Shown here piece by piece: positions 35,790 through 46,800 of a stretch of DNA of 64,000 nucleotides (its first letter is position 1; every line of letters starts with the position of its first letter). The notes beneath the pieces were generated by a model. That model did no database searches. It was not told where the DNA came from and was given only the letters and a program-made list of their open reading frames with translations. The stretch lies in NCBI GenBank assembly GCA_965116445.1, contig OZ220688.1:1349149-1413148 (forward strand), in the 5' to 3' direction. Source of the stretch: Thermoanaerobaculia bacterium (lineage in GTDB: Bacteria > Acidobacteriota > Thermoanaerobaculia > Multivoradales > Multivoraceae). Position numbers and translations under genes: made by a program.

Positions 35790-36916
35790 TCCGGGAACAG
35801 GCTCCGGTCGAGGCCCGGGATGATCTCAAGGGCGTTGCGGAAGTAGATCTTCTCGAGCACCTCATCGGACAGGCCGAGCCCGTACATCTTCCAGTGGGCG
35901 TGGCGCTTCCGGTAGTAGTCGAAGTACTCGTCCCGCGTCTCCAGCACGCGGAAGTAGACGTGGTAGCCCTCGATCGGATCCCAGGAGTCCTTGCCCATCA
36001 GGACGCGGTCCTGGTACTTCTCCATGAAGGCGGCGCCCGTGATCGGCTGCCTGCCGAGTTCGGCGAGGACCGCGCCGAGTTCCGTGTAGACGTTCGGCAG
36101 CTCGTCGAGCAGCTTGCCGAGTCGCGCCAGGTCGTTGCCGAGCCAGCCCAAGTGGGCGTTGATGAAGATCGTGTTCGGATGATTGCGGAACAGGTTGTGC
36201 TGCTCGCCCATCGTCTGCTCGAAGGAGGCAAAGCGCGTGGCGTCGTCGCGACGGCGTCTCGGGAACATCTTGAGTTCGAGCCAACGCTCGTTGTGCTCGT
36301 CCCACGGATCCCAGAACGGCGACGGTTCGCCAACGTGGATCAGGACCGGGATGCCCAACTCGCCCGCCTTCGCCCACACCGGATCGATCCGCGGGTCGTC
36401 GGCCGCCACCCGCTTGCCGTCGCTGTCGGTCTGGAACATGCTGAGGTTCTTGTAGATCTTGAGGCCCTGCGCGCCGGCCTGAACGTCCGCTTCGAGCTGC
36501 GACGCCGCCTTCTTGCCCCAGCCGGGTTGACCGATGCCGGAGAAGTCGACGTTCGCGTAGGCGACGAACCGGCCCGGGTAGCGGCCCTTGGTGGCGGCGA
36601 TGTTCGCCTTGAGGCCCTCGCCGCTGCCGCCGCTCAGGTTGACGAAGGTGGCCATGTTCAGCTCGTCCATCGTCTTGACCATCTGGTCGATCCGCGCCGC
36701 GTCGCCGCCGCGCAGGTGGCCGTGGGCGTCGACGAAGGGGAACTTCGCCCGCGTCACCGGGCCGCCCGGCACCTTGAGCGTCGAACGCGGCTCGTAGGCC
36801 TCGACGGTCATGTCCTGGCCGGCGGCCGGCAGCGGCGCGAGCAGCAGAGCGGCGACCAGGAACCAGCTCGGGTTATCGATGCGGATCGAAGCGTTCGAAC
36901 TATGTGTGACCGGCAT
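35786..36916 (-). CDS. Amidohydrolase-2 (metal-dependent TIM-barrel hydrolase) family protein, secreted
   Basis: Signal peptide. FVDAHGHL metal-binding start and conserved His/Asp positions typical of PF04909-type amidohydrolases. Confidence 0.6.
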   Translation of the reverse strand: MPVTHSSNASIRIDNPSWFLVAALLLAPLPAAGQDMTVEAYEPRSTLKVPGGPVTRAKFPFVDAHGHLRGGDAARIDQMVKTMDELNMATFVNLSGGSGEGLKANIAATKGRYPGRFVAYANVDFSGIGQPGWGKKAASQLEADVQAGAQGLKIYKNLSMFQTDSDGKRVAADDPRIDPVWAKAGELGIPVLIHVGEPSPFWDPWDEHNERWLELKMFPRRRRDDATRFASFEQTMGEQHNLFRNHPNTIFINAHLGWLGNDLARLGKLLDELPNVYTELGAVLAELGRQPITGAAFMEKYQDRVLMGKDSWDPIEGYHVYFRVLETRDEYFDYYRKRHAHWKMYGLGLSDEVLEKIYFRNALEIIPGLDRSLFPE

Positions 36917-36954
36917 GCTTTCTTCCTCAAGTCCCGGGTTGCCTCGTCGAAGGC

Positions 36955-37215
36955 GTCAGAGCGCTCGGAGTCTACGGCAGGACTCTTCAACCAGAGCCGG
37001 GAAAGGCGCCACGGGCTTGTATGGAACTGGCCGAATCACTGGGTGCGCCGACGTCCCCGTCGGCTTTCTGAGAGAAACGCGCGAGGCCGCAGGCCTAGCT
37101 CCTTCGTGCGGAGCCGGCCTGACGGCCGGGGCGTCTCTCCGGCTGCCTTCGGCAGCAGCCGGCGGGGACGCCGGCGCACCCAGTGGGCGGCCAGTTCCCT
37201 GCGCGTCGGCGCAGC
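36955..37215. repeat. Cluster of about 2-3 REP-like units (CACTGGGTGCGCCGACGTCCCCGTCGGCTTTCTGAGAGAAACGCGCGAGGCCGCAGGCC ... GCCGGCGGGGACGCCGGCGCACCCAGTG)
   Basis: Seen directly. Lies upstream of the 37300-44394 gene cluster. Confidence 0.8.
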
Positions 37216-37299
37216 GGAAGGCCGCAACCTGGCTGTTCCAGGCGAGTCAGCGCAGCGCACGCGCTGCTCTGACTGCTCGCCTGCGTATACTTCCACCCG

Positions 37300-37578
37300 A
37301 TGTCCATCGTGCGCGCCGCCGAGGTCGTCGTACTGCTCGGTGCCGTGTACGTCGCATGCGGACTCGTGTTCGCTCCGTTCTTCGTCTGGCGCGGCGTGGG
37401 CCGCGTCGACCCGGCCGCGAGGACAACCGGGCTCGGGTTCCGTCTGATCGTCCTTCCAGGCGTCGCCGCGCTGTGGCCGGTGCTGCTGCGGCGGTGGCTC
37501 GCCGGACGGCAGCCTCCGGCGGAGCGCAACGCGCACCGTGACGCGGCTGCCGGTCGAGGAAGGCGGGTAGACGGGTGA
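37300..37578 (+). CDS. Small 2-TM membrane protein (92 aa), first gene of the coupled operon
   Basis: Two hydrophobic helices. Stop overlaps the next start (GTGA). Confidence 0.45.
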   Translation: MSIVRAAEVVVLLGAVYVACGLVFAPFFVWRGVGRVDPAARTTGLGFRLIVLPGVAALWPVLLRRWLAGRQPPAERNAHRDAAAGRGRRVDG

Positions 37579-37766
37579 TCCGCGGTCTGCGAGGGCGCCA
37601 CCGCCTGATCTGGACCGTGCTGTTCCCGATCCTGGCGGTCCTGCTCGCCGCGGCGCTGCTATGGCGGCCCGCCCCCCCGCTCGCGGACAGCCTTCCGGAA
37701 GCGCGCGAGGTCGACGCTTCCCAAACCGGCGCCGACACCCCGGCACCGCGGGACGAGCCGCAGTGA
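37575..37766 (+). CDS. Small single-TM membrane protein (63 aa)
   Basis: GTG start inside GTGA overlaps on both sides. One TM helix. Confidence 0.4.
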   Translation: MIRGLRGRHRLIWTVLFPILAVLLAAALLWRPAPPLADSLPEAREVDASQTGADTPAPRDEPQ

Positions 37767-38902
37767 GCGCCGAGTACCAGGCCGTTCTTTGGAACCGCAA
37801 CAAGAAGCTCTACGACCTGGCCATCGCCACCGGAGTCGTGGTCTTCCTAGGTCTGTTCGTCGGCATCGGCATCGCAACCCGACCCCAGGCGACGATCGAG
37901 ACCCTGCTGATTCGCGGTTTCGGCGCCGGCGCCCTGCTGCTGCTCCACGTCGTGCTCGCCATCGGGCCGCTGTGCCGGCTGGACCGACGCTTCCTGCCCC
38001 TGCTCTACAACCGGCGCCACCTGGGTGTCTCCATGTTCCTGCTGGCTCTGGCTCACGGCGGATTCGCCGTCGTCCAGTTTCACGGCCTGGGCGTACTGAA
38101 CCCCCTGGTCAGCGTGCTGGCGAGCAACGGGAGATACGACAGCCTGTCGCAGTTCCCGTTTCAGGCGCTCGGCCTGCTGGCGCTCGCGATCCTCTTCCTG
38201 ATGGCGGCGACCTCGCACGACTTCTGGCTCGCGAACCTGACGGCGCCGGTCTGGAAGTCGCTCCACATGCTGGTCTACGCGGCCTACGGACTGATCCTCG
38301 TCCACGTGGCGCTGGGCAGCCTTCAGGCCGCCGAGCGACCGCCGATCCTCGCCGCCCTGCTGGGACTCGGATTCGCGTGCATCGCCTCGCTGCACCTGGT
38401 CGCCGGCTGGCGGGGCCGACTCTCGTCTCCGGAACGCGGCAGAGCGGCCAACGGGGACGATACGGCGAACGCGATGGACGCTGTCGACGTCTGCGCGGTC
38501 ACCGACATCCCGCTCGACCGCGCCCGCATCTTCCTGCTCGCCGGCGAACGCGTCGCCGTCTTCCGCTACCGGACGGACAAAGGCGAGTGGCTCGCCGCCG
38601 TCTCGAACGTCTGCCAGCACCAGAACGGGCCACTCGGCGAAGGCCGGGTCCTCGACGGCTGGATCACCTGCCCCTGGCACGGCTACCAGTACCGGCCCGA
38701 GGACGGCTGCTCGCCCCCGCCTTTCACCGAGAAGATCCCCACGTTCCACGTCCGCGTCGAGAACGGCCGGGTACTGGTCGATCCGCGGCCGAATCCGCCC
38801 GGTACGCGGGCGGAACCGGCGCGGGTCGCCGCTGCCGAAGGCCGGCTGGGTCGGCCTTCCAGCCGGCACTCCGGGGATCGCCGCCTCGGGGGTTCCTCGT
38901 GA
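37763..38902 (+). CDS. Ferric-reductase-like transmembrane (di-heme b) domain fused to a C-terminal Rieske [2Fe-2S] domain
   Basis: 6 TM helices with conserved His pairs (LLLLHVVLAIGP ... LALAHGGFAV ... LHMLVYAAYGLILVHV), then CQHQNGPLGEG ... CPWHGYQY (Rieske CxH...CxxH). GTGA overlaps at both ends. Confidence 0.6.
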   Translation: MSAEYQAVLWNRNKKLYDLAIATGVVVFLGLFVGIGIATRPQATIETLLIRGFGAGALLLLHVVLAIGPLCRLDRRFLPLLYNRRHLGVSMFLLALAHGGFAVVQFHGLGVLNPLVSVLASNGRYDSLSQFPFQALGLLALAILFLMAATSHDFWLANLTAPVWKSLHMLVYAAYGLILVHVALGSLQAAERPPILAALLGLGFACIASLHLVAGWRGRLSSPERGRAANGDDTANAMDAVDVCAVTDIPLDRARIFLLAGERVAVFRYRTDKGEWLAAVSNVCQHQNGPLGEGRVLDGWITCPWHGYQYRPEDGCSPPPFTEKIPTFHVRVENGRVLVDPRPNPPGTRAEPARVAAAEGRLGRPSSRHSGDRRLGGSS

Positions 38903-39897
38903 CCGGCGATCGCCAGGACGAACTGTACGTCGGCTACCTCGACGAGACGCCGCCCAGCGTGGCGCGGTTTGTGCGCCGTATCGCGATCGGCCTCCTGCTG
39001 CTGGCCGTGGTCCTGGGCGCCGGTCTTGCGCTGCTGCTCGAGCCGTTCGACGAAGGAGTGTTCGAGTACGGCACGGTGAGAGACTACGAGGGAGAACTGC
39101 TCGTCGATCCACATCCCCGGCTGCTCACGGCCGATGGACCGGCTCAGGGCTATCTGCTGGTTGGGGTCGGAAAGCACGGACTGGACGTGAATCTGGAGTC
39201 CAACCCGCCCTGGTCGCCCTCGCTCTCCTGGAGTACCGCGCTTTCGGGCTCGCTGATCGAGAACCGGGACGCGGCGATGCTCGAGGTCCACGTGCTCGAG
39301 CCTCCCGAGAGAACCGCCGTGGCTGGGCCCGCCGTCGAATCGGGCGCTCCAGCAAGTCCGGCAACCGACCGGGAGCGGCTCGACACCGAGGGCCCTCACC
39401 CTTCATCCGACGCGATCCCGGGGCCGCCGAACGCAGCAGCCAACGTCGTTCGCCTGCGCGGGCAGACCTTGCTGGGCGAAATCGTCGACACGAAGTGCTA
39501 TCTGGGCGCGATGAAGCCGGGCCGGGGCAAAGCCCACCGGGGCTGCGCCTCGCTCTGCATCAGCGGCGGCATTCCGGCCGCGCTCCTGGTCCGAACGGAA
39601 GACGGCAAGCGGGAACTGGTCCACCTCGTGGACCTCGGCGGCCGGCCATTGGGACGCGAGATCCTCGACTGGGTCGGCCAGCCGGTCGAAGTCACCGGCT
39701 TCCTGCATCGCCAGGACGACCGCCTCTTCCTGGCGACCGCCATATCCGACGGGAGCTCCGCGGCGACGACCATTCGCCCCTACCCCGCGGCCGAGTTCCC
39801 CGGCGCCGAGGCGGTCCTCGATCGACCCGGCCCGCCGAACGAACGCTCGCGCAAGTCCGGCAGCGGCGCCCCCGGACCGGAGGGGCGCCCAGGATGA
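38899..39897 (+). CDS. Membrane-anchored hypothetical protein (N-terminal TM, about 280-aa extracytoplasmic region)
   Basis: GTGA start overlap. Single TM IAIGLLLLAVVLGAGLALLL. C-terminal Cys pair CYLGAMKPGRGKAHRGCASLCISGG. No family recognised. Confidence 0.45.
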   Translation: MTGDRQDELYVGYLDETPPSVARFVRRIAIGLLLLAVVLGAGLALLLEPFDEGVFEYGTVRDYEGELLVDPHPRLLTADGPAQGYLLVGVGKHGLDVNLESNPPWSPSLSWSTALSGSLIENRDAAMLEVHVLEPPERTAVAGPAVESGAPASPATDRERLDTEGPHPSSDAIPGPPNAAANVVRLRGQTLLGEIVDTKCYLGAMKPGRGKAHRGCASLCISGGIPAALLVRTEDGKRELVHLVDLGGRPLGREILDWVGQPVEVTGFLHRQDDRLFLATAISDGSSAATTIRPYPAAEFPGAEAVLDRPGPPNERSRKSGSGAPGPEGRPG

Positions 39898-40745
39898 ACG
39901 CCAGGGTCGTGAACGCAAGTCCCTCAGAGGGCGGCATCGACCGAAGTGGCGGCCCGATTCCCAGCCCCGAACTCCTGCCCGACGGCCAGATCGAGGTCGG
40001 CAGCTATCGGCTCCGGTTTGCACGCACGGCGGCCGACATCGACCGGCTGCTGGCGCTGCGCTTCGAGGTCTTCAACCTGGAACTCGGCGAGGGCCTTACG
40101 GAGTCCTTCGCCACCGGCCGCGACACGGATCGTTTCGACGCGAGCTGCCACCACATGCTGGTCGAGGAAGAGAACGGCCAGCTCATCGGCACCTACCGCA
40201 TGCAGACGGCGGCCATGGCCGCGCGCGGTCATGGCTTCTACTCGGCCGGCGAGTACGAACTGGACGCCATACCCGGAAGCGTCCTCGATCAGTCGGTCGA
40301 GATCGGCCGCGCCTGCATCCACCGCGAACACCGCAAGCGCACGGTGCTGTTCCTGCTCTGGAAGGGCCTGGCCCGGTACCTCGTCCACAACCGCTGCCGC
40401 TACCTGTTCGGCTGCTGCTCCCTGACCAGCCAGGATCAGGCGGCCGGCATCCGGCTCTACCGGCAACTCAATGCGGCCGGCAAGGTGATGACCGACCTCG
40501 ACGTGCCTCCCCTGCCCCACACCCGCTGCGAGGCGACCGACGATCAGGTAGCCGCAATCCCCGACATCAAGGTGCCGCCGCTCTTCGCCACCTATCTCCG
40601 CTACGGCACCCTGGTGTGCAGCCGCCCGGCGATCGACCGGGAGTTCAAGACGATCGACTACCTGGTCCTGATGGACACGGCCGCGTTGAGCCGGCGCACG
40701 CGGTTGATCTTCGGGCTCAACGAAGCGCCGGCGGCGGCGCTCTAG
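39894..40745 (+). CDS. olsB: OlsB/GlsB-family N-acyltransferase (GNAT Acetyltransf_5; lyso-aminolipid / N-acyl amino acid synthase)
   Basis: ATGA overlap with the upstream gene. SYRLRFARTAADIDRLLALRFEVFNLELGEG and GTYRMQT ... RKRTVLFLLWKGLARYL are hallmarks of OlsB-like hemolysin-type N-acyltransferases. Confidence 0.7.
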   Translation: MNARVVNASPSEGGIDRSGGPIPSPELLPDGQIEVGSYRLRFARTAADIDRLLALRFEVFNLELGEGLTESFATGRDTDRFDASCHHMLVEEENGQLIGTYRMQTAAMAARGHGFYSAGEYELDAIPGSVLDQSVEIGRACIHREHRKRTVLFLLWKGLARYLVHNRCRYLFGCCSLTSQDQAAGIRLYRQLNAAGKVMTDLDVPPLPHTRCEATDDQVAAIPDIKVPPLFATYLRYGTLVCSRPAIDREFKTIDYLVLMDTAALSRRTRLIFGLNEAPAAAL

Positions 40746-40794
40746 CTCCGGCACACGACTTGCTTCGCGGCGTTCTTCGGCGCAAGCTCCCGGG

Positions 40795-41661
40795 ATGCAG
40801 CCGAGAACCAGCAACCCCCCGCTGCTTGGGCCCCTCCGGCTCTGGCGGTTGATCTGGCGGGCGCCGGCTCTGCTGGTCGCGGCCCTGACCGCCTGGCTCC
40901 CGCTGCTCGTTCTGCGACCCCTCCTGGCACGACCGGCGCCCCGATCCTGGCGAGCCGTCCTCCGCACCGTGCTCCGGTGCTGGGGACGCACAAGTCTCGC
41001 GATCCTCGGCTGCAGGGTGACCGTACGCGGCAAGGCGCCCAAGAGTCCCTTCCTGCTCATCTCGAACCACATCTCATACCTCGACATTCTTCTGCTTTCG
41101 GCCTTCACGCCCGGCCTCTTCGTGTCCAAGGCGGAGATTCGGAGCTGGCCGGTGGCCGGCGCCATGTGCCGGACGGTAGGCATCATCTTCGTCGACCGCC
41201 GCCGGCGCCGGGACGTGACGCGCGTCGGCGAGCAGATCGCCGCAGCGCTCGCGGACGGCGACTCCGTGATCCTGTTCCCCGAAGGGACGTCGACACCCGG
41301 CCGAGAGGTGACGCCACTCAAGCCGTCCCTGCTGGCGCCGGCCGCCGGGCAGGAGCTCGCCGTGCACTGGGCCGTCATCCGCTACCGGACGCCGCCCGAC
41401 GAGACGCCCGCCTTCCTGAGCGTTGCCTGGTGGGGAGAGATGCCCATGGTGCCCCACGCCCCCGACCTGCTCAGGCTCCGGCGCATCGACGCGGAAATCG
41501 AGTTCGGCGAAGAGCCGGTGCGGTGCGCCGACCGCAAGGAGCTCGCCCGCCTCCTGCGCGAGCGGATGGCGGACCGGTTCCGGCCGATGGTCTCGAGCGA
41601 GGAACTCGCGGCCATCGGCGACCTCCACGGCCCCGTCGGGATTCCCGAACGCCGCGACTGA
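40795..41661 (+). CDS. olsA: OlsA/PlsC-family lysolipid O-acyltransferase (LPLAT)
   Basis: ISNHISYLD (HX4D), FPEGTS motif and N-terminal TM. Immediately downstream of the olsB-like gene, as in olsBA / glsBA pairs. Confidence 0.7.
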   Translation: MQPRTSNPPLLGPLRLWRLIWRAPALLVAALTAWLPLLVLRPLLARPAPRSWRAVLRTVLRCWGRTSLAILGCRVTVRGKAPKSPFLLISNHISYLDILLLSAFTPGLFVSKAEIRSWPVAGAMCRTVGIIFVDRRRRRDVTRVGEQIAAALADGDSVILFPEGTSTPGREVTPLKPSLLAPAAGQELAVHWAVIRYRTPPDETPAFLSVAWWGEMPMVPHAPDLLRLRRIDAEIEFGEEPVRCADRKELARLLRERMADRFRPMVSSEELAAIGDLHGPVGIPERRD

Positions 41662-41721
41662 CGGGGCGCGGATGCGGCAGCCATCGCACGACGAACCGGC
41701 GGTCCGCCGCATGGTCGAACG

Positions 41722-44394
41722 GTGACGAGAGACGATCGACTGCGGCCGCAACGGGCGACCTGGTGGAAGATCGCGACCGCGGTCTACCTCGTCCTGCTGC
41801 TGGGCTCGACGCTGACGCGCATCGTCGCCGAACCGGATCCGCTGCCCCGGGGCCGGGAGACGACGGAAATCGACTCGTCGGCAACCGCTGACCGACCAGT
41901 CCGCATGGCGTGGCGGGAGTGGGGCGAGCCGGTCGCCGCCGACGCCCCGGGCGAAGACGCCCTGCCGCTCGTCCTCCTCCACGGATCGCCAGGCAGCGCC
42001 GACGACTTCCGGCGCCTGGCGCCCCACCTGGCTTCAGGGCGCCGCATCATCGCTCCCGACCTCCCTGGATTCGGCGCCTCCGAGCAGCGGGTGAACGACT
42101 ACTCGATCCGCGCCCATGCCGAGGCGACCCTCGCCCTGCTCGACGAACTCGGCGTGGGGCGTTTCCACGTCCTCGGCTTCAGCATGGGCGGCGGCCCCGC
42201 CCTGCACCTGGCGGACAACGCTTCGGACCGCGTCGCGTCCGTGGTGCTCGTCGCCTCGGTCGGCGTTCAGGAGCTCGAACTGCTCGGCAACTACACGGTG
42301 AACCACGGCCTGCACGGTTTGCAGCTCGGCCTGATCCGGGGCCTGCGCAACCTGGTCCCCCACTTCGGCGCCTTCGATCAGCCGATCGCCCACTCCTACG
42401 CCCGCAACTTCTACGACACGGACCAGCGGCCTCTGCGCGGCATCCTCAAGACCCTGGAAGCGCCGGTCTTCATCGTCCACGGCGAGCAGGATCCGCTCGT
42501 GCCGGCCGCCGCGGCGCTGGAGCACCACCGGATCGTGCCTCACAGCGAGCTGTGGATGCGGCCGGACAGCCACTTCTTCCTGTTTCGCGGCGGCGGGGAC
42601 CTCGCGTCCCGGATCGACGGGTTCCTGGAACGCGTCGAAGCCGGCGAAGCGCCGACCCTGGCCTTTGCCACGCCGGAGCGGCTGCGCCGGGCGGCGATGC
42701 CGTTCGACGACATGGACCTGCCGCCGTTTGCCGGGCCGGCCCTGCTGATCGTCTTCCTGCTCCTCGTGTTCGCCGCGTACCTGAGCGAGGATCTGACCTG
42801 CATCACGGCGGGCCTGCTGATCGCACAAGGGCGCCTCGACTTCCCGGTCGGCGTGGCGGCCTGCTACCTCGGCATCCTGAGCAGCGACCTGGGCCTCGCC
42901 TGGCTGGCGCGCGTTCTGGGCCGGCCCGCGCTCAGGCTGCCGCCCTTCAAGTGGTGGGTCAGCGAAGCGGCCGTCGAGGAGGCTTCGGCATGGCTGCGGC
43001 GCCGGGCGCTCGTCGTCGTCCTGGTCAGCCGCTTCCTGCCCGGCACGCGCCTGCCGACCTGCCTCGCCGCCGGCATCCTGCGCACCAGCCTGCTCCGGTT
43101 CTGCTTCTACTTCGGCGTCGCCGTGGCGATCTGGACGCCCGCCTTCGTCGGTCTGAACGTGCTGCTGGGCCGCGAGGCCGTCGAGCGCTTCGGCGGCCGT
43201 CTGCCCGGCGGCCTGCTGGCGGCAGTGCTGGCGCTGGGGCTCGTGATCCTCAGCGTCCGCACCTTCGTCCTGCCGCTCTTCACTTGGCGCGGGCGTCGGC
43301 TGCTGCGCGGCCGGCTGCTCCGCATCCGGCACTGGGAGTTCTGGCCCATGTGGGTGTTCTACCCGCCGCTCGTGCTCTACATCCTGTGGCTCGGTCTCCG
43401 GCGCGGCAGCCTCGCGGCGTTCACCGCGGTCAATCCGGCGATGCCGCTGGGCGGCCTGCAGGGCGAGTCGAAGAGCGACATTCTGGACGGCCTGGCCGGA
43501 ATCGGCGAGGCGTTACCGGCATGGACGCGCCTGCCGCCGGGGAAGCCTGAGGGTTTGCCGACGAGGAACGCACTGCCTTTACCAACGGAGAACCTGGCGA
43601 CACGGGTCGCGGCCCTGCAGCGGTTCCTGCGGGACGAGGATCTGGACTACCCGGTCGTCCTCAAGCCGGACACCGGCGAGCGGGGACGCGGTATCGCCGT
43701 GGCGCACTCGGAAGCCGAAGCGATCGCGTTCTTCGAGGCGACTCCCGGACCGGCGCTCGTGCAGGAGTACGTGGCAGGCGAAGAGTACGGCGTGTTCTGG
43801 GCCCGCCACCAGGGCCGACGTGACGGGCAGGTCTTCTCGATCACGCACAAGGTGCGGCCGACCGTGACGGGCGACGGCGCCAGCACCCTGGAACGGTTGA
43901 TCCTCGAGGACCGGCGAGCGGTAGCCATCGCGCACCTCTACCGGCGGGAACACCCCCAGGCCGCGAAGCGCGTACCCGAAGCCGGCGAAGTCGTCGAACT
44001 GACCGAGGTCGGCGCGCACTCCCGCGGCACGATCTTCCTGGACGCGAACGATCTCCACACCCCGGAACTGGAACGGGCGATCAACACGATCAGCACTGCC
44101 TACGCAGGCTTCGACTTCGGCCGCTTCGACATACGCGTCCCGACCGCCAAGGCGCTCCAGCGTGGCGAGGGAATCCGGGTGCTCGAAGCGAACGGCGTGA
44201 CCTCGGAAGCGACCCACATGTACGACCGCCGCTACGGCTTCTTCGCCGCCCACGCGATCCTGCGCCGGCAGTGGCGGAAGGCCTTCGACCTCGCCGACGA
44301 GCGCATCCGTGCGGGCGCCCGGCCCGCGAGTGTGAGCGAAGTCCTCCGCGCCATTCGGGCCGAACGACGAGCCAGGAACGAAGGGCCGCACTGA
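41722..44394 (+). CDS. 890-aa tri-domain fusion: alpha/beta-hydrolase + DedA/SNARE-associated membrane domain + ATP-grasp ligase (RimK/Ddl-like)
   Basis: N-terminus: LVLLHGSPGSADDF ... LGFSMGG ... HGEQD ... H (Ser-Asp-His triad). Middle: LTCITAGLLIAQGRLDF ... VSRFLPGTRLPTCLAAGIL (DedA) plus extra TMs. C-terminus: YPVVLKPDTGERGRGIAV ... LVQEYVAGEEYGV ... FGRFDIRV ... RVLEANGVTSEATHMYD (ATP-grasp). Confidence 0.65.
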   Translation: MTRDDRLRPQRATWWKIATAVYLVLLLGSTLTRIVAEPDPLPRGRETTEIDSSATADRPVRMAWREWGEPVAADAPGEDALPLVLLHGSPGSADDFRRLAPHLASGRRIIAPDLPGFGASEQRVNDYSIRAHAEATLALLDELGVGRFHVLGFSMGGGPALHLADNASDRVASVVLVASVGVQELELLGNYTVNHGLHGLQLGLIRGLRNLVPHFGAFDQPIAHSYARNFYDTDQRPLRGILKTLEAPVFIVHGEQDPLVPAAAALEHHRIVPHSELWMRPDSHFFLFRGGGDLASRIDGFLERVEAGEAPTLAFATPERLRRAAMPFDDMDLPPFAGPALLIVFLLLVFAAYLSEDLTCITAGLLIAQGRLDFPVGVAACYLGILSSDLGLAWLARVLGRPALRLPPFKWWVSEAAVEEASAWLRRRALVVVLVSRFLPGTRLPTCLAAGILRTSLLRFCFYFGVAVAIWTPAFVGLNVLLGREAVERFGGRLPGGLLAAVLALGLVILSVRTFVLPLFTWRGRRLLRGRLLRIRHWEFWPMWVFYPPLVLYILWLGLRRGSLAAFTAVNPAMPLGGLQGESKSDILDGLAGIGEALPAWTRLPPGKPEGLPTRNALPLPTENLATRVAALQRFLRDEDLDYPVVLKPDTGERGRGIAVAHSEAEAIAFFEATPGPALVQEYVAGEEYGVFWARHQGRRDGQVFSITHKVRPTVTGDGASTLERLILEDRRAVAIAHLYRREHPQAAKRVPEAGEVVELTEVGAHSRGTIFLDANDLHTPELERAINTISTAYAGFDFGRFDIRVPTAKALQRGEGIRVLEANGVTSEATHMYDRRYGFFAAHAILRRQWRKAFDLADERIRAGARPASVSEVLRAIRAERRARNEGPH

Positions 44395-44402
44395 CCCGAG
44401 CG

Positions 44403-44972
44403 TCAGGTCCTGCGCGCTTCGACTTCTTCCATGACAGAAGGCACCGTCTTCTCGCTCGGACCGCTGTCGATGCCCTCTTGTACGGCAGTTCGAAGGGACT
44501 CCAAGTCGCCCGCTCGCGGCTCCAGTTCTTCCAGCGCCTCGAGCCGGGCTTCGATCGCGCTCAGCTTCTCGACCACCGCGTCCAGGTCCGCTTTGCCGGG
44601 AACGCCGAGCTTCTCGAGCCGGCGCTCCAGGTGTTCGTCGAGTCCCGTCCGCGCCTTGGCCTTGGTCTGCTCGAAGCCGCTCCGCGCCTTCGACTTGGTC
44701 TGCTCGAGCCCTTTCTCGGCCGCGGAACGCACCTGCTTGACCTTGACTTCCGCCTTGTCCCGCCAACCGCTCAGGGACTCCCGGCCCTGGCTCTCGACCT
44801 TCTCGCCGCGCGCAACCAGCCGGTCAAAGACCTTGGATCCGGCGTCGACCGCCTCGCCCGCCACGCCTGCGCCGGCAAGCGCCACCTTGTGGGCCGCTTC
44901 GACGGCCGAGTCGACCACCGACCGCGCCTTCAAATCGCTATCCCTGGTTTCTGCCGCGGATGCTGCTGTCAT
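44403..44972 (-). CDS. Phasin-like / coiled-coil granule-associated protein (189 aa)
   Basis: RBS GGGGAG before the ATG at 44972. Highly helical, Ala/Glu/Lys-rich with repeated KARSGFEQTKAKART segments resembling PHA phasins. The longer track ORF is rejected. Confidence 0.45.
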   Translation of the reverse strand: MTAASAAETRDSDLKARSVVDSAVEAAHKVALAGAGVAGEAVDAGSKVFDRLVARGEKVESQGRESLSGWRDKAEVKVKQVRSAAEKGLEQTKSKARSGFEQTKAKARTGLDEHLERRLEKLGVPGKADLDAVVEKLSAIEARLEALEELEPRAGDLESLRTAVQEGIDSGPSEKTVPSVMEEVEARRT

Positions 44973-45046
44973 CTCGTTTCTCCCCTCTATGTCTGTTGGG
45001 GCTTCCGACACAGCGGACCGCGATTCCTCCAGGAACTGTGGGCCCG

Positions 45047-45826
45047 CTAGGAACTGTGGGCTTCGGCGAGTCGCCGCTTCACTGTCTCGAGGGGGTTGCG
45101 GTAGTCCACCGTGCCAAGACCCTTGTTGGTCAGCTTGTAACCGATCAACTCCTGCAGCTTCTCCGGCATCTCCACGACGACGTCCCACGGCACGCCGACG
45201 TACTGGTTCTCGCGCTGCTTGAGCCACGCCAGGTTGAAGTTGAAGTTGATGGAGCGCCGATAGCCGCTGTCCGTCGAGTTCCCTCCGCCACGGTGCCAGA
45301 CGGCGCCGTCCCAGAGGAACAGGGCCCCGGCCGGCATCTCCACCGTCAACGTGGGCACGTCCGGATCGACCGGATCGGCCGAGCGATGGCTGCCGGGAAC
45401 GATCTCCGTTGCCCCGTTCTCGGCCGTGAACGGATCGAGTGCGATCAGCGTGTTGGCGATCAGGGGGAAGTGCGGGCGCGCAAGCGGGTAGTGGCCGTCG
45501 TCCTGGTGCATCCGCTGGCGACGGTCCCCCGGCCCCGGCCGCATCGCGGCGACGCCGGAGACCTGATAGTCCGGGCCGAGCACCGCCTCGACGAGCCCCA
45601 GCAGACCATCGTCCATCAGCAGTTCGTCGACGGCCCGCGTCTTGGCGAGCAGGTTGTGCGTGTGGATCGTCTGCTGACCGTAGTCGTCCGTCAGCCGGCT
45701 GCCGATTTCCTCGAACACGGGGTCGAGACCCCGCTTCAGCCGTTCCAGCCTCTCCTCGCCGAGGAAATCGGGCACCACCGTGTAGCCGTCTTCGCGAACC
45801 TGCCGTGCTGATCTCTCGATGTCCAT
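45047..45826 (-). CDS. Phytanoyl-CoA dioxygenase (PhyH) family Fe(II)/2-oxoglutarate oxygenase
   Basis: HQDDGHY ... (HxD), GATEIVPGSH, LFLWDGAVWHRGG typical of the PhyH family. Confidence 0.75.
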   Translation of the reverse strand: MDIERSARQVREDGYTVVPDFLGEERLERLKRGLDPVFEEIGSRLTDDYGQQTIHTHNLLAKTRAVDELLMDDGLLGLVEAVLGPDYQVSGVAAMRPGPGDRRQRMHQDDGHYPLARPHFPLIANTLIALDPFTAENGATEIVPGSHRSADPVDPDVPTLTVEMPAGALFLWDGAVWHRGGGNSTDSGYRRSINFNFNLAWLKQRENQYVGVPWDVVVEMPEKLQELIGYKLTNKGLGTVDYRNPLETVKRRLAEAHSS

Positions 45827-45894
45827 AACTTCCCGTGACCAGTGATCGGATTGACGTTTCGCGGGAGCGTACCAAAGGGAGTAGCCTTCACTCC

Positions 45895-46800
45895 ATGAGA
45901 AGAGATACGGCGTATCGCCGACCGATGTTCCGCGCCGTCCTGGCGACGCTGATCGCGTTCGTCGCCTTCACCGGCGTCTACGCGCAAAGTGACGCCTCTA
46001 CCGAGTCCTTCACGGCGAGCGACGGCGCCGTCATTCACTACCTGGTCGAAGGGCGCGGCGACCCCGTCGTGCTCCTCCACGGCATCACCGGCACGGCCGC
46101 CTCGAACTGGGGCGCCGCCGGCATCATCGACCGGCTGGCCGAGGAGTTCCAGGTCATCGCCGTCGACCAGCGCGGCCACGGCAAGAGCGACAAGCCGCAC
46201 GACCCGGACAGCTACGGCGAGCGCATGGCGCTGGATGTCGTCGATCTGCTGGATCACCTGAGGCTGCAGCAGGCGAACGTCGTCGGCTACTCGATGGGCG
46301 GCTTCATCACGATGAAGCTCATCGCCCTCGCGCCCGACCGGCTGCTCTCGGCAGTCGTCGGCGGCGCCGGCTGGTCCAGCCCCGACCTGCGCGACGACGC
46401 CATGTTCGACGCCCTGGCGGTTTCGCTCGAGGCGGGCAAGGGCGGCGGTCCCCTGGTCGAGTTCCTGTGGCCCGGCGAGGAACCGCCTGGCCCCGAGCAG
46501 GTTCAGGCCATCGGCCTGGCGATGGTTGCCTCGAACGACCAGGCGGCCCTGGCAGCCGTCGTCCGCGGCATGCCCGCCCTCGACGTGAGCGCCGAGCTCC
46601 TCCGCATCAACAAGGTGCCGACCCTCAACATCATCGGCAGCAACGATCCCCTGAAGCCCAACGCTGACGCCCTCGTCTCTGTCATGCAGGAGCACCGCCT
46701 CCACGTGATCGAAGGCGCGAACCACATGAACACCCTGAACTCCCCCGAGTTCTACGACACGATCCGCGCCTTCTTCATCGAACTCTGCAACTGCGCCTGA
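45895..46800 (+). CDS. Alpha/beta-hydrolase fold protein, secreted
   Basis: Signal peptide. VVLLHGITGT ... VGYSMGGF (GxSxG) ... AVDQRGHGKSD. Start ambiguous (45835, 45895 or 45925). Confidence 0.65.
   Translation: MRRDTAYRRPMFRAVLATLIAFVAFTGVYAQSDASTESFTASDGAVIHYLVEGRGDPVVLLHGITGTAASNWGAAGIIDRLAEEFQVIAVDQRGHGKSDKPHDPDSYGERMALDVVDLLDHLRLQQANVVGYSMGGFITMKLIALAPDRLLSAVVGGAGWSSPDLRDDAMFDALAVSLEAGKGGGPLVEFLWPGEEPPGPEQVQAIGLAMVASNDQAALAAVVRGMPALDVSAELLRINKVPTLNIIGSNDPLKPNADALVSVMQEHRLHVIEGANHMNTLNSPEFYDTIRAFFIELCNCA

Follow-up and report, generated by a model that had tools for sequence, protein, structure and literature searches.

A tri-domain alpha/beta-hydrolase, DedA and ATP-grasp protein of Thermoanaerobaculia as a candidate amino-lipid head-group synthase and translocase

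What might an ATP-grasp ligase be doing in one polypeptide with a DedA membrane domain and an alpha/beta-hydrolase, directly behind a pair of genes for lipid acyltransferases? The question is raised by a gene at 41722..44394 (+) in a 64,000-nucleotide (nt) stretch of the genome of a Thermoanaerobaculia bacterium (Acidobacteriota; assembly GCA_965116445.1, contig OZ220688.1, positions 1,349,149 to 1,413,148), referred to as a whole as the window. The gene starts with GTG and encodes 890 residues in the order signal anchor, alpha/beta-hydrolase, DedA domain, monotopic helix and ATP-grasp ligase. A preliminary description compared this arrangement to the logic of MprF and proposed ATP-dependent amidation of an aminolipid such as ornithine lipid, together with translocation and hydrolytic reversal. 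The protein appears to be a lipid head-group synthase/translocase built on ATP-grasp. We give an even chance to the fuller proposal that it is an inner-membrane enzyme modifying and translocating an acyloxyacyl amino-lipid made by the adjacent OlsB/OlsA-like enzymes.

The tri-domain architecture is that of a real single polypeptide, and its three domains are recognised by Pfam, by structure prediction and by fold search. GC at the third codon position is 0.80-1.00 in a single frame over most of the open reading frame, and the codon bias is even throughout. A homologue search lists more than 120 full-length homologues of 850-950 residues and 45-83% identity, and a scan with one genome per species finds at least 231 loci encoding a tri-domain relative in at least eight phyla. 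Some of the full-length collinear orthologues sit on complete chromosomes. All the domains and linkers are conserved in alignments of 15 and of 82 sequences, and the whole-chain AlphaFold2 model has a mean predicted local distance difference test score (pLDDT) of 90.1 and a predicted template modelling score (pTM) of 0.75. Because of the uniform codon bias, the full-length orthologues, the linker conservation and the confident chain model, we take the fusion to be genuine. If the open reading frame were an artefact of assembly or of a frameshift, or had arisen when three genes were fused by chance, this would have to be squared with the uniform third-position GC, hundreds of collinear full-length orthologues, the conserved linkers and a confident single-chain model; nothing was found in favour of such an origin, and we regard it as negligible. 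The conservation of the full-length architecture by itself rejects a frameshift, which the preliminary description had named as one danger to its proposal. The upstream OlsA-like gene (40795-41661) and the tri-domain gene merely share a reading frame, with one TGA and 60 nt between them and no other stop. This sharing looks coincidental, since the N-termini of the homologues support the GTG start at 41722.

The loci closest to the window are from Thermoanaerobaculia/'Ca. Multivorans'. Further carriers are found in Blastocatellia, Bryobacterales, Gemmatimonadota, Planctomycetota, Verrucomicrobiota, Rhodothermia/Balneolaceae (including the cultured Fodinibius salsisoli), Krumholzibacteriota, Chloroflexota and Desulfobacterales. 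In the databases the homologues are called 'alpha/beta fold hydrolase' or, at JGI, 'pimeloyl-ACP methyl ester carboxylesterase/membrane protein DedA'. Relatives with smaller architectures are called 'VTT domain-containing protein', 'carboxylate--amine ligase' or 'hypothetical protein'.

The ligase occupies residues 561-890 (43402..44391, +) and has a much reduced N-domain. Full-length searches, both Foldseek and a profile search of PDB, are dominated by the hydrolase domain and return generic esterases only, and because the ligase is swamped in them it was modelled separately. The module alone is modelled at pLDDT 93.8 and pTM 0.91, with the Rossmann-like N-domain shrunk to a few short helices and one strand. 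Its first Foldseek match in PDB is the G domain of cyanophycin synthetase (7wae; E 2e-10, 19% identity), followed by GshAB, CphA2 and then Ddl/VanA (E ~1e-7, 11-17% identity); macrocyclases of ribosomally synthesised and post-translationally modified peptides (RiPPs) are also among the fold matches. Phmmer against PDB likewise finds CphA1 (E 2e-5), with a 'VTGDGxST' stretch in common. By structure prediction and fold search, the module has the ATP-grasp fold. In Pfam, RimK reaches 20.2 bits in the full protein against a cut-off of 21 and a marginal 22.1 bits in the isolated module; the RimK and ATP-grasp_3 matches in the full protein are weak and begin at residue 615. The invariant residues are E582, K584, K648, R654, Q681, E688, K710, G717 and G719 (TGDG), R801-x-D803 and E822-x-N824, and D718 is kept in 90% or more of the sequences; the catalytic motifs are intact. 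K648, R801, D803, E822 and N824, which by motif position represent the ATP-binding lysine, the catalytic arginine and the Mg2+ motif, are invariant in the 82 sequences.

The module is a divergent peptide-type carboxylate-amine ligase, nearest to the CphA1 G domain, GshAB, LysX/ArgX, RimK and Ddl and a member of none of these. Its identity to the nearest ATP-grasp families is 15-23%, and it falls below every NCBIfam cut-off. The cyanophycin synthetase family TIGR02068 matches residues 615-824 at 43.5 bits, against a cut-off of 850, and covers the G-domain region only (model positions 223-443), which excludes CphA1 as an assignment. Ddl is excluded as well: there is no Ddl match in Pfam, the Foldseek identity is 11-17%, and the neighbouring genes encode lipid acyltransferases. 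Clustering with a soluble-substrate ligase family such as Ddl, the other danger foreseen for the original proposal, does not occur at these identities. Like CphA1, GshAB, RimK, LysX and ArgX, which add an amino acid to an anchored substrate at its carboxylate, the window ligase has the Lys, Arg-x-Asp and Glu-x-Asn motifs, and it has the TGDG lid motif in common with CphA1. It differs from this group in that the N-domain is replaced by a membrane helix, DedA and hydrolase domains are fused to it, and lipid acyltransferase genes are linked to it. It would be an example of an ATP-grasp enzyme in which a membrane anchor has taken the place of the substrate-binding domain.

The ligase is preceded by an Arg-rich helix, taken to be cytoplasmic (residues 520-542, net charge +5.8), and a hydrophobic 'WEFWP...YPP' helix (543-560), together at 43279..43401 (+). 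The linker residues E539, W541 and Y547 are invariant in the 82 sequences, and helix 543-560 probably serves as a non-spanning membrane anchor of the ligase.

The DedA/VTT domain (residues 338-519; 42733..43278, +) matches Pfam PF09335 over residues 362-477 at 43.2 bits, passing the gathering threshold of 33.9, and is modelled with two re-entrant helices and three spanning helices. The first re-entrant element is a helix-break-helix at 338-368 with S355-E356-D357 at its tip, of which E356 and D357 are invariant. The tip of the second is R437-x5-R443, ahead of helix 443-452, and both arginines are invariant. As in the COG0586 type of DedA protein (YqjA/YghB, UptA), there are three spanning helices and acidic tips (E356/D357 versus E39/D51), and R437 and R443 have the spacing of six of R130 and R136 in YqjA/YghB. 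One difference from that type lies in the cargo, which in the window protein is likely to be an amino-lipid. UptA, the undecaprenyl-phosphate transporter, is not the assignment: its equivalog NF052604 gives partial matches of 47.3 and 51.2 bits, far below the cut-off of 250. A survey of about 16,000 DedA proteins lists fusions only with rhodanese, PAP2 and oxidoreductase domains, and fusions to a hydrolase or an ATP-grasp domain are not among them. With the ligase, DedA has a defined partner in the genome and probably a lipid cargo that lacks phosphate.

The N-terminal transmembrane signal anchor (residues 7-35; 41740..41826, +) is a 29-residue helix in the model, behind an N-tail with a mean net charge of +2.9 in the 82 orthologues, and the N-terminus is probably cytoplasmic. 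The alpha/beta-hydrolase domain follows at residues 46-306 (41857..42639, +), and its assignment draws on Pfam PF00561, invariant columns and Foldseek matches to esterases. It belongs to the alpha/beta-hydrolase fold, with Abhydrolase_1 (PF00561) matching residues 82-179 at 115.4 bits against a cut-off of 25.8 and Abhydrolase_6 (PF12697) reaching residue 288. The catalytic residues S154 (in a GFSMGG elbow), D257 and H284 are in canonical order and invariant in the 82 sequences; in the model they lie after strands 148-153, 249-254 and 276-280, respectively. An HG oxyanion motif is at 87-88. The cap is strongly conserved, including the stretches GVQELELLG and YARNFYDTDQRPLR and the charged residues E184, E186, D232, D234 and R239. 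Foldseek with the full-length model matches esterases at template modelling (TM) scores of 0.7-0.78, and the domain is comparable to generic lipases, including the membrane-bound 6i8w.

The sidedness of the protein can be proposed from its relatives and its charges. In YqjA, by cysteine accessibility (SCAM), the first hairpin has its two ends on the periplasmic side, and the C-terminus is cytoplasmic, as is the loop ahead of the second hairpin. Over the 82 orthologues, the loop at 400-456 has a net charge of +6.5, which with the N-tail and helix 520-542 makes three positive segments, while the proposed periplasmic segments are about neutral; this distribution obeys the positive-inside rule. 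Two two-domain relatives, P0151 and P0256, have lipoprotein-type signal peptides (LVSC, LVGC) directly before hairpin 1. In stand-alone ligases the ATP-grasp domain is preceded only by a short K/R-rich tail and the WEFWP helix, and this helix therefore cannot span the membrane if the ATP-using domain is cytoplasmic. We infer that the N-terminus is inside, the hydrolase is periplasmic, DedA forms the membrane core and the ligase is cytoplasmic.

Which part of the protein is the core can be seen from the wider family. A HMMER search with residues 521-890 returned 2,682 cluster representatives at 50% identity, 995 of them at E <= 1e-30. When the best 149 relatives, excluding the query's own cluster, were compared by BLAST to the three domains, hydrolase, DedA and ligase were found together in 66, DedA and ligase in 56, and the ligase alone in 20; the remaining 7 have hydrolase and ligase with a DedA domain too divergent to score. 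The stand-alone ligases are about 350-400 residues long and the DedA-ligase proteins about 520-600. The ATP-grasp module is the core of the system. The DedA-ligase association is found both fused and split, as in a Terriglobales locus where DedA is a separate gene (L088, below). The hydrolase-based reversibility suggested earlier is not intrinsic to the system, since about half of the family has no hydrolase. The family is large, about 1,000 clusters at this identity and E-value, and is mostly from poorly studied soil and sediment phyla; the cultured carriers are few, Arenicella xantha and Fodinibius salsisoli.

The tie to amino-lipids comes from the neighbouring genes. In the window, an OlsB-like N-acyl amino acid synthase of 283 residues (39894..40745, +; Acetyltransf_5, 101.7 bits), with GGAGG upstream of its start, is followed by an OlsA-like lyso-lipid O-acyltransferase of 288 residues (40795..41661, +; Pfam Acyltransferase, 73.7 bits) and, 60 nt further on the same strand, by the tri-domain gene, which therefore does stand directly after olsBA-like genes as originally described. 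The Pfam thresholds are passed by both acyltransferases. Against NCBIfam, the first scores 124.9 and 124.6 bits for OlsB (cut-offs 350 and 320) and the second 142.7 and 132.3 bits for OlsA (cut-off 300). The likeness to the OlsB/OlsA pathway thus lies in the Acetyltransf_5/FeeM and Acyltransferase families and the gene order, and the difference in the sub-cut-off scores. Because these are below the equivalog cut-offs, we call the proteins OlsB/OlsA-like and leave the head-group amino acid open. Start and stop codons overlap at 38899/38902 and at 39894/39897 (an ATGA at the OlsB-like start), and a scan of 36800-45200 for promoters and terminators found no site, hence none between the OlsA-like and tri-domain genes. 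The tri-domain gene closes a translationally coupled same-strand cluster.

The same linkage was followed in 80 loci kept of the at least 231, with 38-82% identity to the window protein. An OlsB-like gene lies within 8 kb in 62 of these and an OlsA-like gene in 53, mostly upstream on the same strand, and most of the loci without them are short contigs or belong to Verrucomicrobiota. The linkage persists where the ATP-grasp domain stands alone or is fused to DedA only. Of seven contexts of smaller architectures (loci numbered with an L), four keep OlsB-like and OlsA-like genes nearby (L081, L082, L086 and L087), L088 has an OlsB-like gene, and L083 and L085 have neither. A stand-alone ligase is followed by OlsB-like and OlsA-like genes in metagenome-assembled genome (MAG) GCA_964496065.1 (L081), in MAG GCA_964351295.1, with DinB and TANGO2 genes before the ligase and an OlsC/LpxO-family hydroxylase after the OlsA-like gene (L082), and in cultured Arenicella xantha, where the ligase has 324 residues and comes after TANGO2 (L087). 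A DedA-ligase follows OlsB-like, OlsA-like, DinB and TANGO2 genes in an assembly from sequencing run SRR23274240 (L086). The Terriglobales MAG (L088) has a haem-b/Rieske gene, a 261-residue gene, an OlsB-like gene, a separate 206-residue DedA, EthD and a stand-alone ligase. A Phycisphaeraceae MAG (L085) has haem-b/Rieske, a 261-residue gene, DinB, TANGO2 and the ligase, with no OlsBA nearby, and in MAG GCA_977880255.1 (L083) the ligase is found with an MMPL transporter. The link between ligase and OlsB/OlsA-like genes holds across phyla and three architectures.

Taken together with the topology, these neighbours suggest the following mechanism. The ATP-grasp domain would work at the cytoplasmic face, with the non-spanning helix standing in for the substrate-binding N-domain. 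It would phosphorylate the free alpha-carboxylate of the amino-lipid head group and couple an amine to it, which could be an amino acid, taurine or ammonia, in a chemistry analogous to that by which RimK, LysX, GshB and the G domain of cyanophycin synthetase extend a C-terminal carboxylate. The DedA domain would move the product to the outer leaflet. There the hydrolase, where present, may cleave or transfer an ester or amide of the lipid, for trimming, recycling or deacylation. Of the amidation role put forward in the preliminary description, there is good support for the link to amino-lipids and for the spatial logic, while carboxylate amidation is the specific chemistry that we infer from the ligase. 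Of its ornithine lipid substrate, the OlsB/OlsA-like link stands, while ornithine itself does not follow from scores so far below the OlsB and OlsA cut-offs.

Several points weigh against this amidation and translocation of an amino-lipid. To our knowledge, no lipid product is known for any carrier organism, and the OlsB/OlsA-like neighbours are far below their equivalog cut-offs. Besides L083 and L085, the ligase occurs without OlsB/OlsA nearby in the Opitutales loci L056 and L064-L066 and in L026, L038, L048 and L061. No named Acetobacteraceae are among the 120 matches listed per stand-alone-ligase search, most of which are listed without a name. The sidedness rests on homology and charge, neither on coordinates nor on experiment. 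The arginine pair of the DedA domain is like the one in undecaprenyl-phosphate flippases. If the fused synthase and hydrolase acted on one and the same bond, the result would be a futile cycle, and the bond met by the hydrolase is therefore probably a different one. Finally, in ATP-grasp chemistry the lipid could just as well be the nucleophile. From this last point comes an unlikely alternative, in which the polarity is reversed: the ATP-grasp domain activates the carboxylate of a small acid or a free amino acid, which is then joined to the delta- or epsilon-amine of an ornithine or lysine lipid, or to a hydroxyl, giving an N-aminoacylated or esterified head group that DedA flips and the hydrolase removes. 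ATP-grasps do also use lipid-like and polymer amines and hydroxyls, with Ddl/VanA and RiPP macrocyclases among the fold matches here; a Ser-Asp-His esterase would naturally act on an ester product, and the invariant acidic residues of the cap (E184, E186, D232, D234) would suit a cationic head group. In all the nearest relatives of the module (CphA1 G domain, GshAB, LysX/ArgX, RimK), however, the carboxylate that is activated belongs to the larger, anchored substrate, and the replacement of the carboxylate-holding N-domain by a membrane helix suggests that the membrane-borne partner is the carboxylate.

The identity of the lipid and the role of the hydrolase can be questioned in similar fashion. 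Another envelope lipid might be the substrate, merely co-regulated with the amino-lipid genes in membrane remodelling; examples would be phosphatidylglycerol, aminoacylated independently of tRNA in true functional analogy to MprF, or an intermediate linked to undecaprenyl phosphate. UptA is indeed the best named DedA match, the arginine pair is conserved, the hydrolase resembles generic lipases including 6i8w, and several loci have no OlsB/OlsA within 8 kb. We nevertheless hold this to be very unlikely, as the UptA score is only 47-51 bits against 250, no conserved genes of peptidoglycan or phospholipid synthesis are nearby, and the OlsB/OlsA linkage recurs across phyla, gene orders and three architectures, with the genes often overlapping or adjacent. 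The futile cycle mentioned above would also be avoided if the hydrolase domain were a periplasmic acyl- or peptidyl-transferase, for which the bond made by the ATP-grasp domain stored the energy of an ATP-free transfer to an outside acceptor. The proposed order of compartments matches the logic of Ddl, flipping and serine transpeptidase, and acyltransferases of the alpha/beta-hydrolase fold do act in amino-lipid synthesis (OlsI). The argument is purely logical, though, with no acceptor indicated, and transfer cannot be the core function when about half of the family has no hydrolase, so that we consider a transferase improbable. Equally doubtful is the complete relay of three domains, in which ATP-grasp would add a C-terminal leaving group, DedA would flip the lipid and the serine enzyme would transfer it covalently, without ATP, to an envelope acceptor. 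If true, such a relay would be the lipid counterpart of the logic of D-Ala-D-Ala ligase, flippase and transpeptidase in cell-wall synthesis.

How far, then, does the comparison to MprF go? MprF is an aminoacyl-phosphatidylglycerol synthase/flippase, and its partner periplasmic hydrolases are of the AcvB/VirJ and PA0919 types. With these the window protein has in common a cytoplasmic head-group synthase fused to a lipid translocator and an alpha/beta-hydrolase-type enzyme outside; the inferred topology, with its cytoplasmic synthase, flippase-like domain and periplasmic hydrolase, fits the MprF-like spatial logic proposed at the outset. It differs in using ATP through an ATP-grasp domain and not aminoacyl-tRNA, in having DedA as the translocator and the hydrolase fused and not separate, and in having partner genes that make amino-lipids and not phosphatidylglycerol. 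It is not a member of the MprF family, since the defining domains LPG_synthase_TM and LPG_synthase_C (DUF2156) were not detected in a Pfam scan of the protein at E <= 0.01. The scan likewise gave no match to the VirJ domain of the AcvB/VirJ aminoacyl-phosphatidylglycerol hydrolases, the hydrolase matching generic alpha/beta-hydrolase families only.

Ornithine lipids and other amino-lipids are major membrane lipids that contain no phosphorus, and carboxylate-extended head groups (taurine-ornithine lipid, Ser-Gly lipids, Orn-Ser-Gly lipids) have been known for decades. A 2026 review counts five known modifications of ornithine lipids, notes the Ser-Gly and Orn-Ser-Gly lipids, and gives as unknown the gene for the ATP-dependent transferase of taurine to the ornithine-lipid carboxyl (PMC12971839). 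A 2025 study leaves unidentified the gene that ligates Ser onto glycine lipids, its authors having found no suitable ATP-grasp in Bacteroides dorei (PMC12746155). The literature therefore agrees with the earlier statement that the enzyme gene for some amidated ornithine lipids is unassigned, and for ATP-dependent carboxylate extension, a step without an identified gene (PMC12971839; PMC12746155 for the Ser ligase), the present family is a concrete, testable candidate. Its regular pairing with OlsB/OlsA-like genes makes it the first candidate for a ligase that uses ATP to modify amino-lipid head groups. The taurine:ornithine-lipid transferase of Gluconobacter cerinus (cerilipin) and the Ser ligase of Bacteroidota have the same predicted activity, ATP-dependent amide formation on a carboxylate. 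No named Acetobacteraceae or Bacteroidia homologue is among the matches listed, however, and with no suitable ATP-grasp found in B. dorei this suggests that the cerilipin and Ser-ligase enzymes may be unrelated to the family. Full-text literature searches found no published description of the tri-domain protein or its cluster. Two unidentified amino-lipids (spots AL1 and AL2) have been reported in Fodinibius alkaliphilus, a congener of the carrier F. salsisoli.

Further genes recur with the ligase. The commonest order is olsB-olsA-(DinB-TANGO2)-tri: a DinB-family gene is present in 44 of the 80 loci and a TANGO2-like gene with N-terminal Met-Cys in 28, between the OlsA-like and tri-domain genes in many phyla. 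Examples of these DinB/TANGO2-like genes are at 1965-2558 in L011, 6763-7842 in L012, 7189-7953 in L046, 6658-7986 in L082, 5552-6960 in L086 and 5671-7004 in L085; neither kind was found when looked for in the 64-kb window. The two proteins may supply or process the amine partner. TANGO2 has a Cys-Ntn hydrolase fold (PMC13044924), and one could speculate that the TANGO2-like protein supplies ammonia or acts as an amidase.

The cluster in the window begins with a small conserved membrane protein of about 92 residues (37300..37578, +), which has no family match and has homologues in the same relative position in more than 20 loci. It is followed by a fusion of an MsrQ-type, ferric-reductase-like haem-b membrane domain to a Rieske [2Fe-2S] domain (37661..38902, +; PF01794 and PF00355), found in 30 of the 80 loci and in L085 and L088, and by a membrane-anchored protein of 332 residues with the Cys motif CYLGAMKPGRGKAHRGCASLC (38899..39897, +), which has no Pfam or NCBIfam match and has homologues in about 30 of the 80. 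The unannotated 261-residue genes after the haem-b/Rieske genes of L085 and L088 are its probable counterparts. All three genes recur ahead of the amino-lipid genes in about 30 of the 80 loci, which suggests that the pathway includes a redox or hydroxylation step. If the doubtful relay of three domains were real, the wider cluster of DinB-like, TANGO2-like, haem-b/Rieske and Cys-rich membrane proteins would build a kind of modified amino-lipid not described so far, found in Acidobacteriota, Gemmatimonadota, Planctomycetota, Verrucomicrobiota, Rhodothermota/Balneolota and some Proteobacteria.

Other neighbours were seen in single loci or a few. A small YHS-domain protein is encoded beside the OlsB/OlsA-like genes in three stand-alone-ligase loci (L082, 10819-11265; L087, 9634-10083; L088, 3613-4065), and the hydroxylase of L082, of the Asp_Arg_Hydrox (OlsC/LpxO) family, lies 2 kb downstream. 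Transporters of the MMPL/RND type stand beside the ligase in L083 (8449-13490, with a LolA-like protein of the DUF1329/TP_0789-like kind) and in L086 (1123-3285), a hint that the lipid product may be exported past the inner membrane.

Downstream of the tri-domain gene in the window are a phasin (44403-~44900, -), a PhyH-type 2-oxoglutarate oxygenase (45047-45826, -), a second alpha/beta-hydrolase (45835-46800, +) whose identity to the hydrolase domain in certain distant tri-domain orthologues is 33-41% over about 100 residues, and an M20 peptidase (46822-48003, -). Their conservation is confined to the closest relatives in Thermoanaerobaculia, and they are therefore not counted in the system. 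Further along, and unrelated to the tri-domain protein, is a fusion of a NERD domain to a UvrD-like helicase at 49142-50764 (-), beside the gene for leucyl-tRNA synthetase at 51005-53659.

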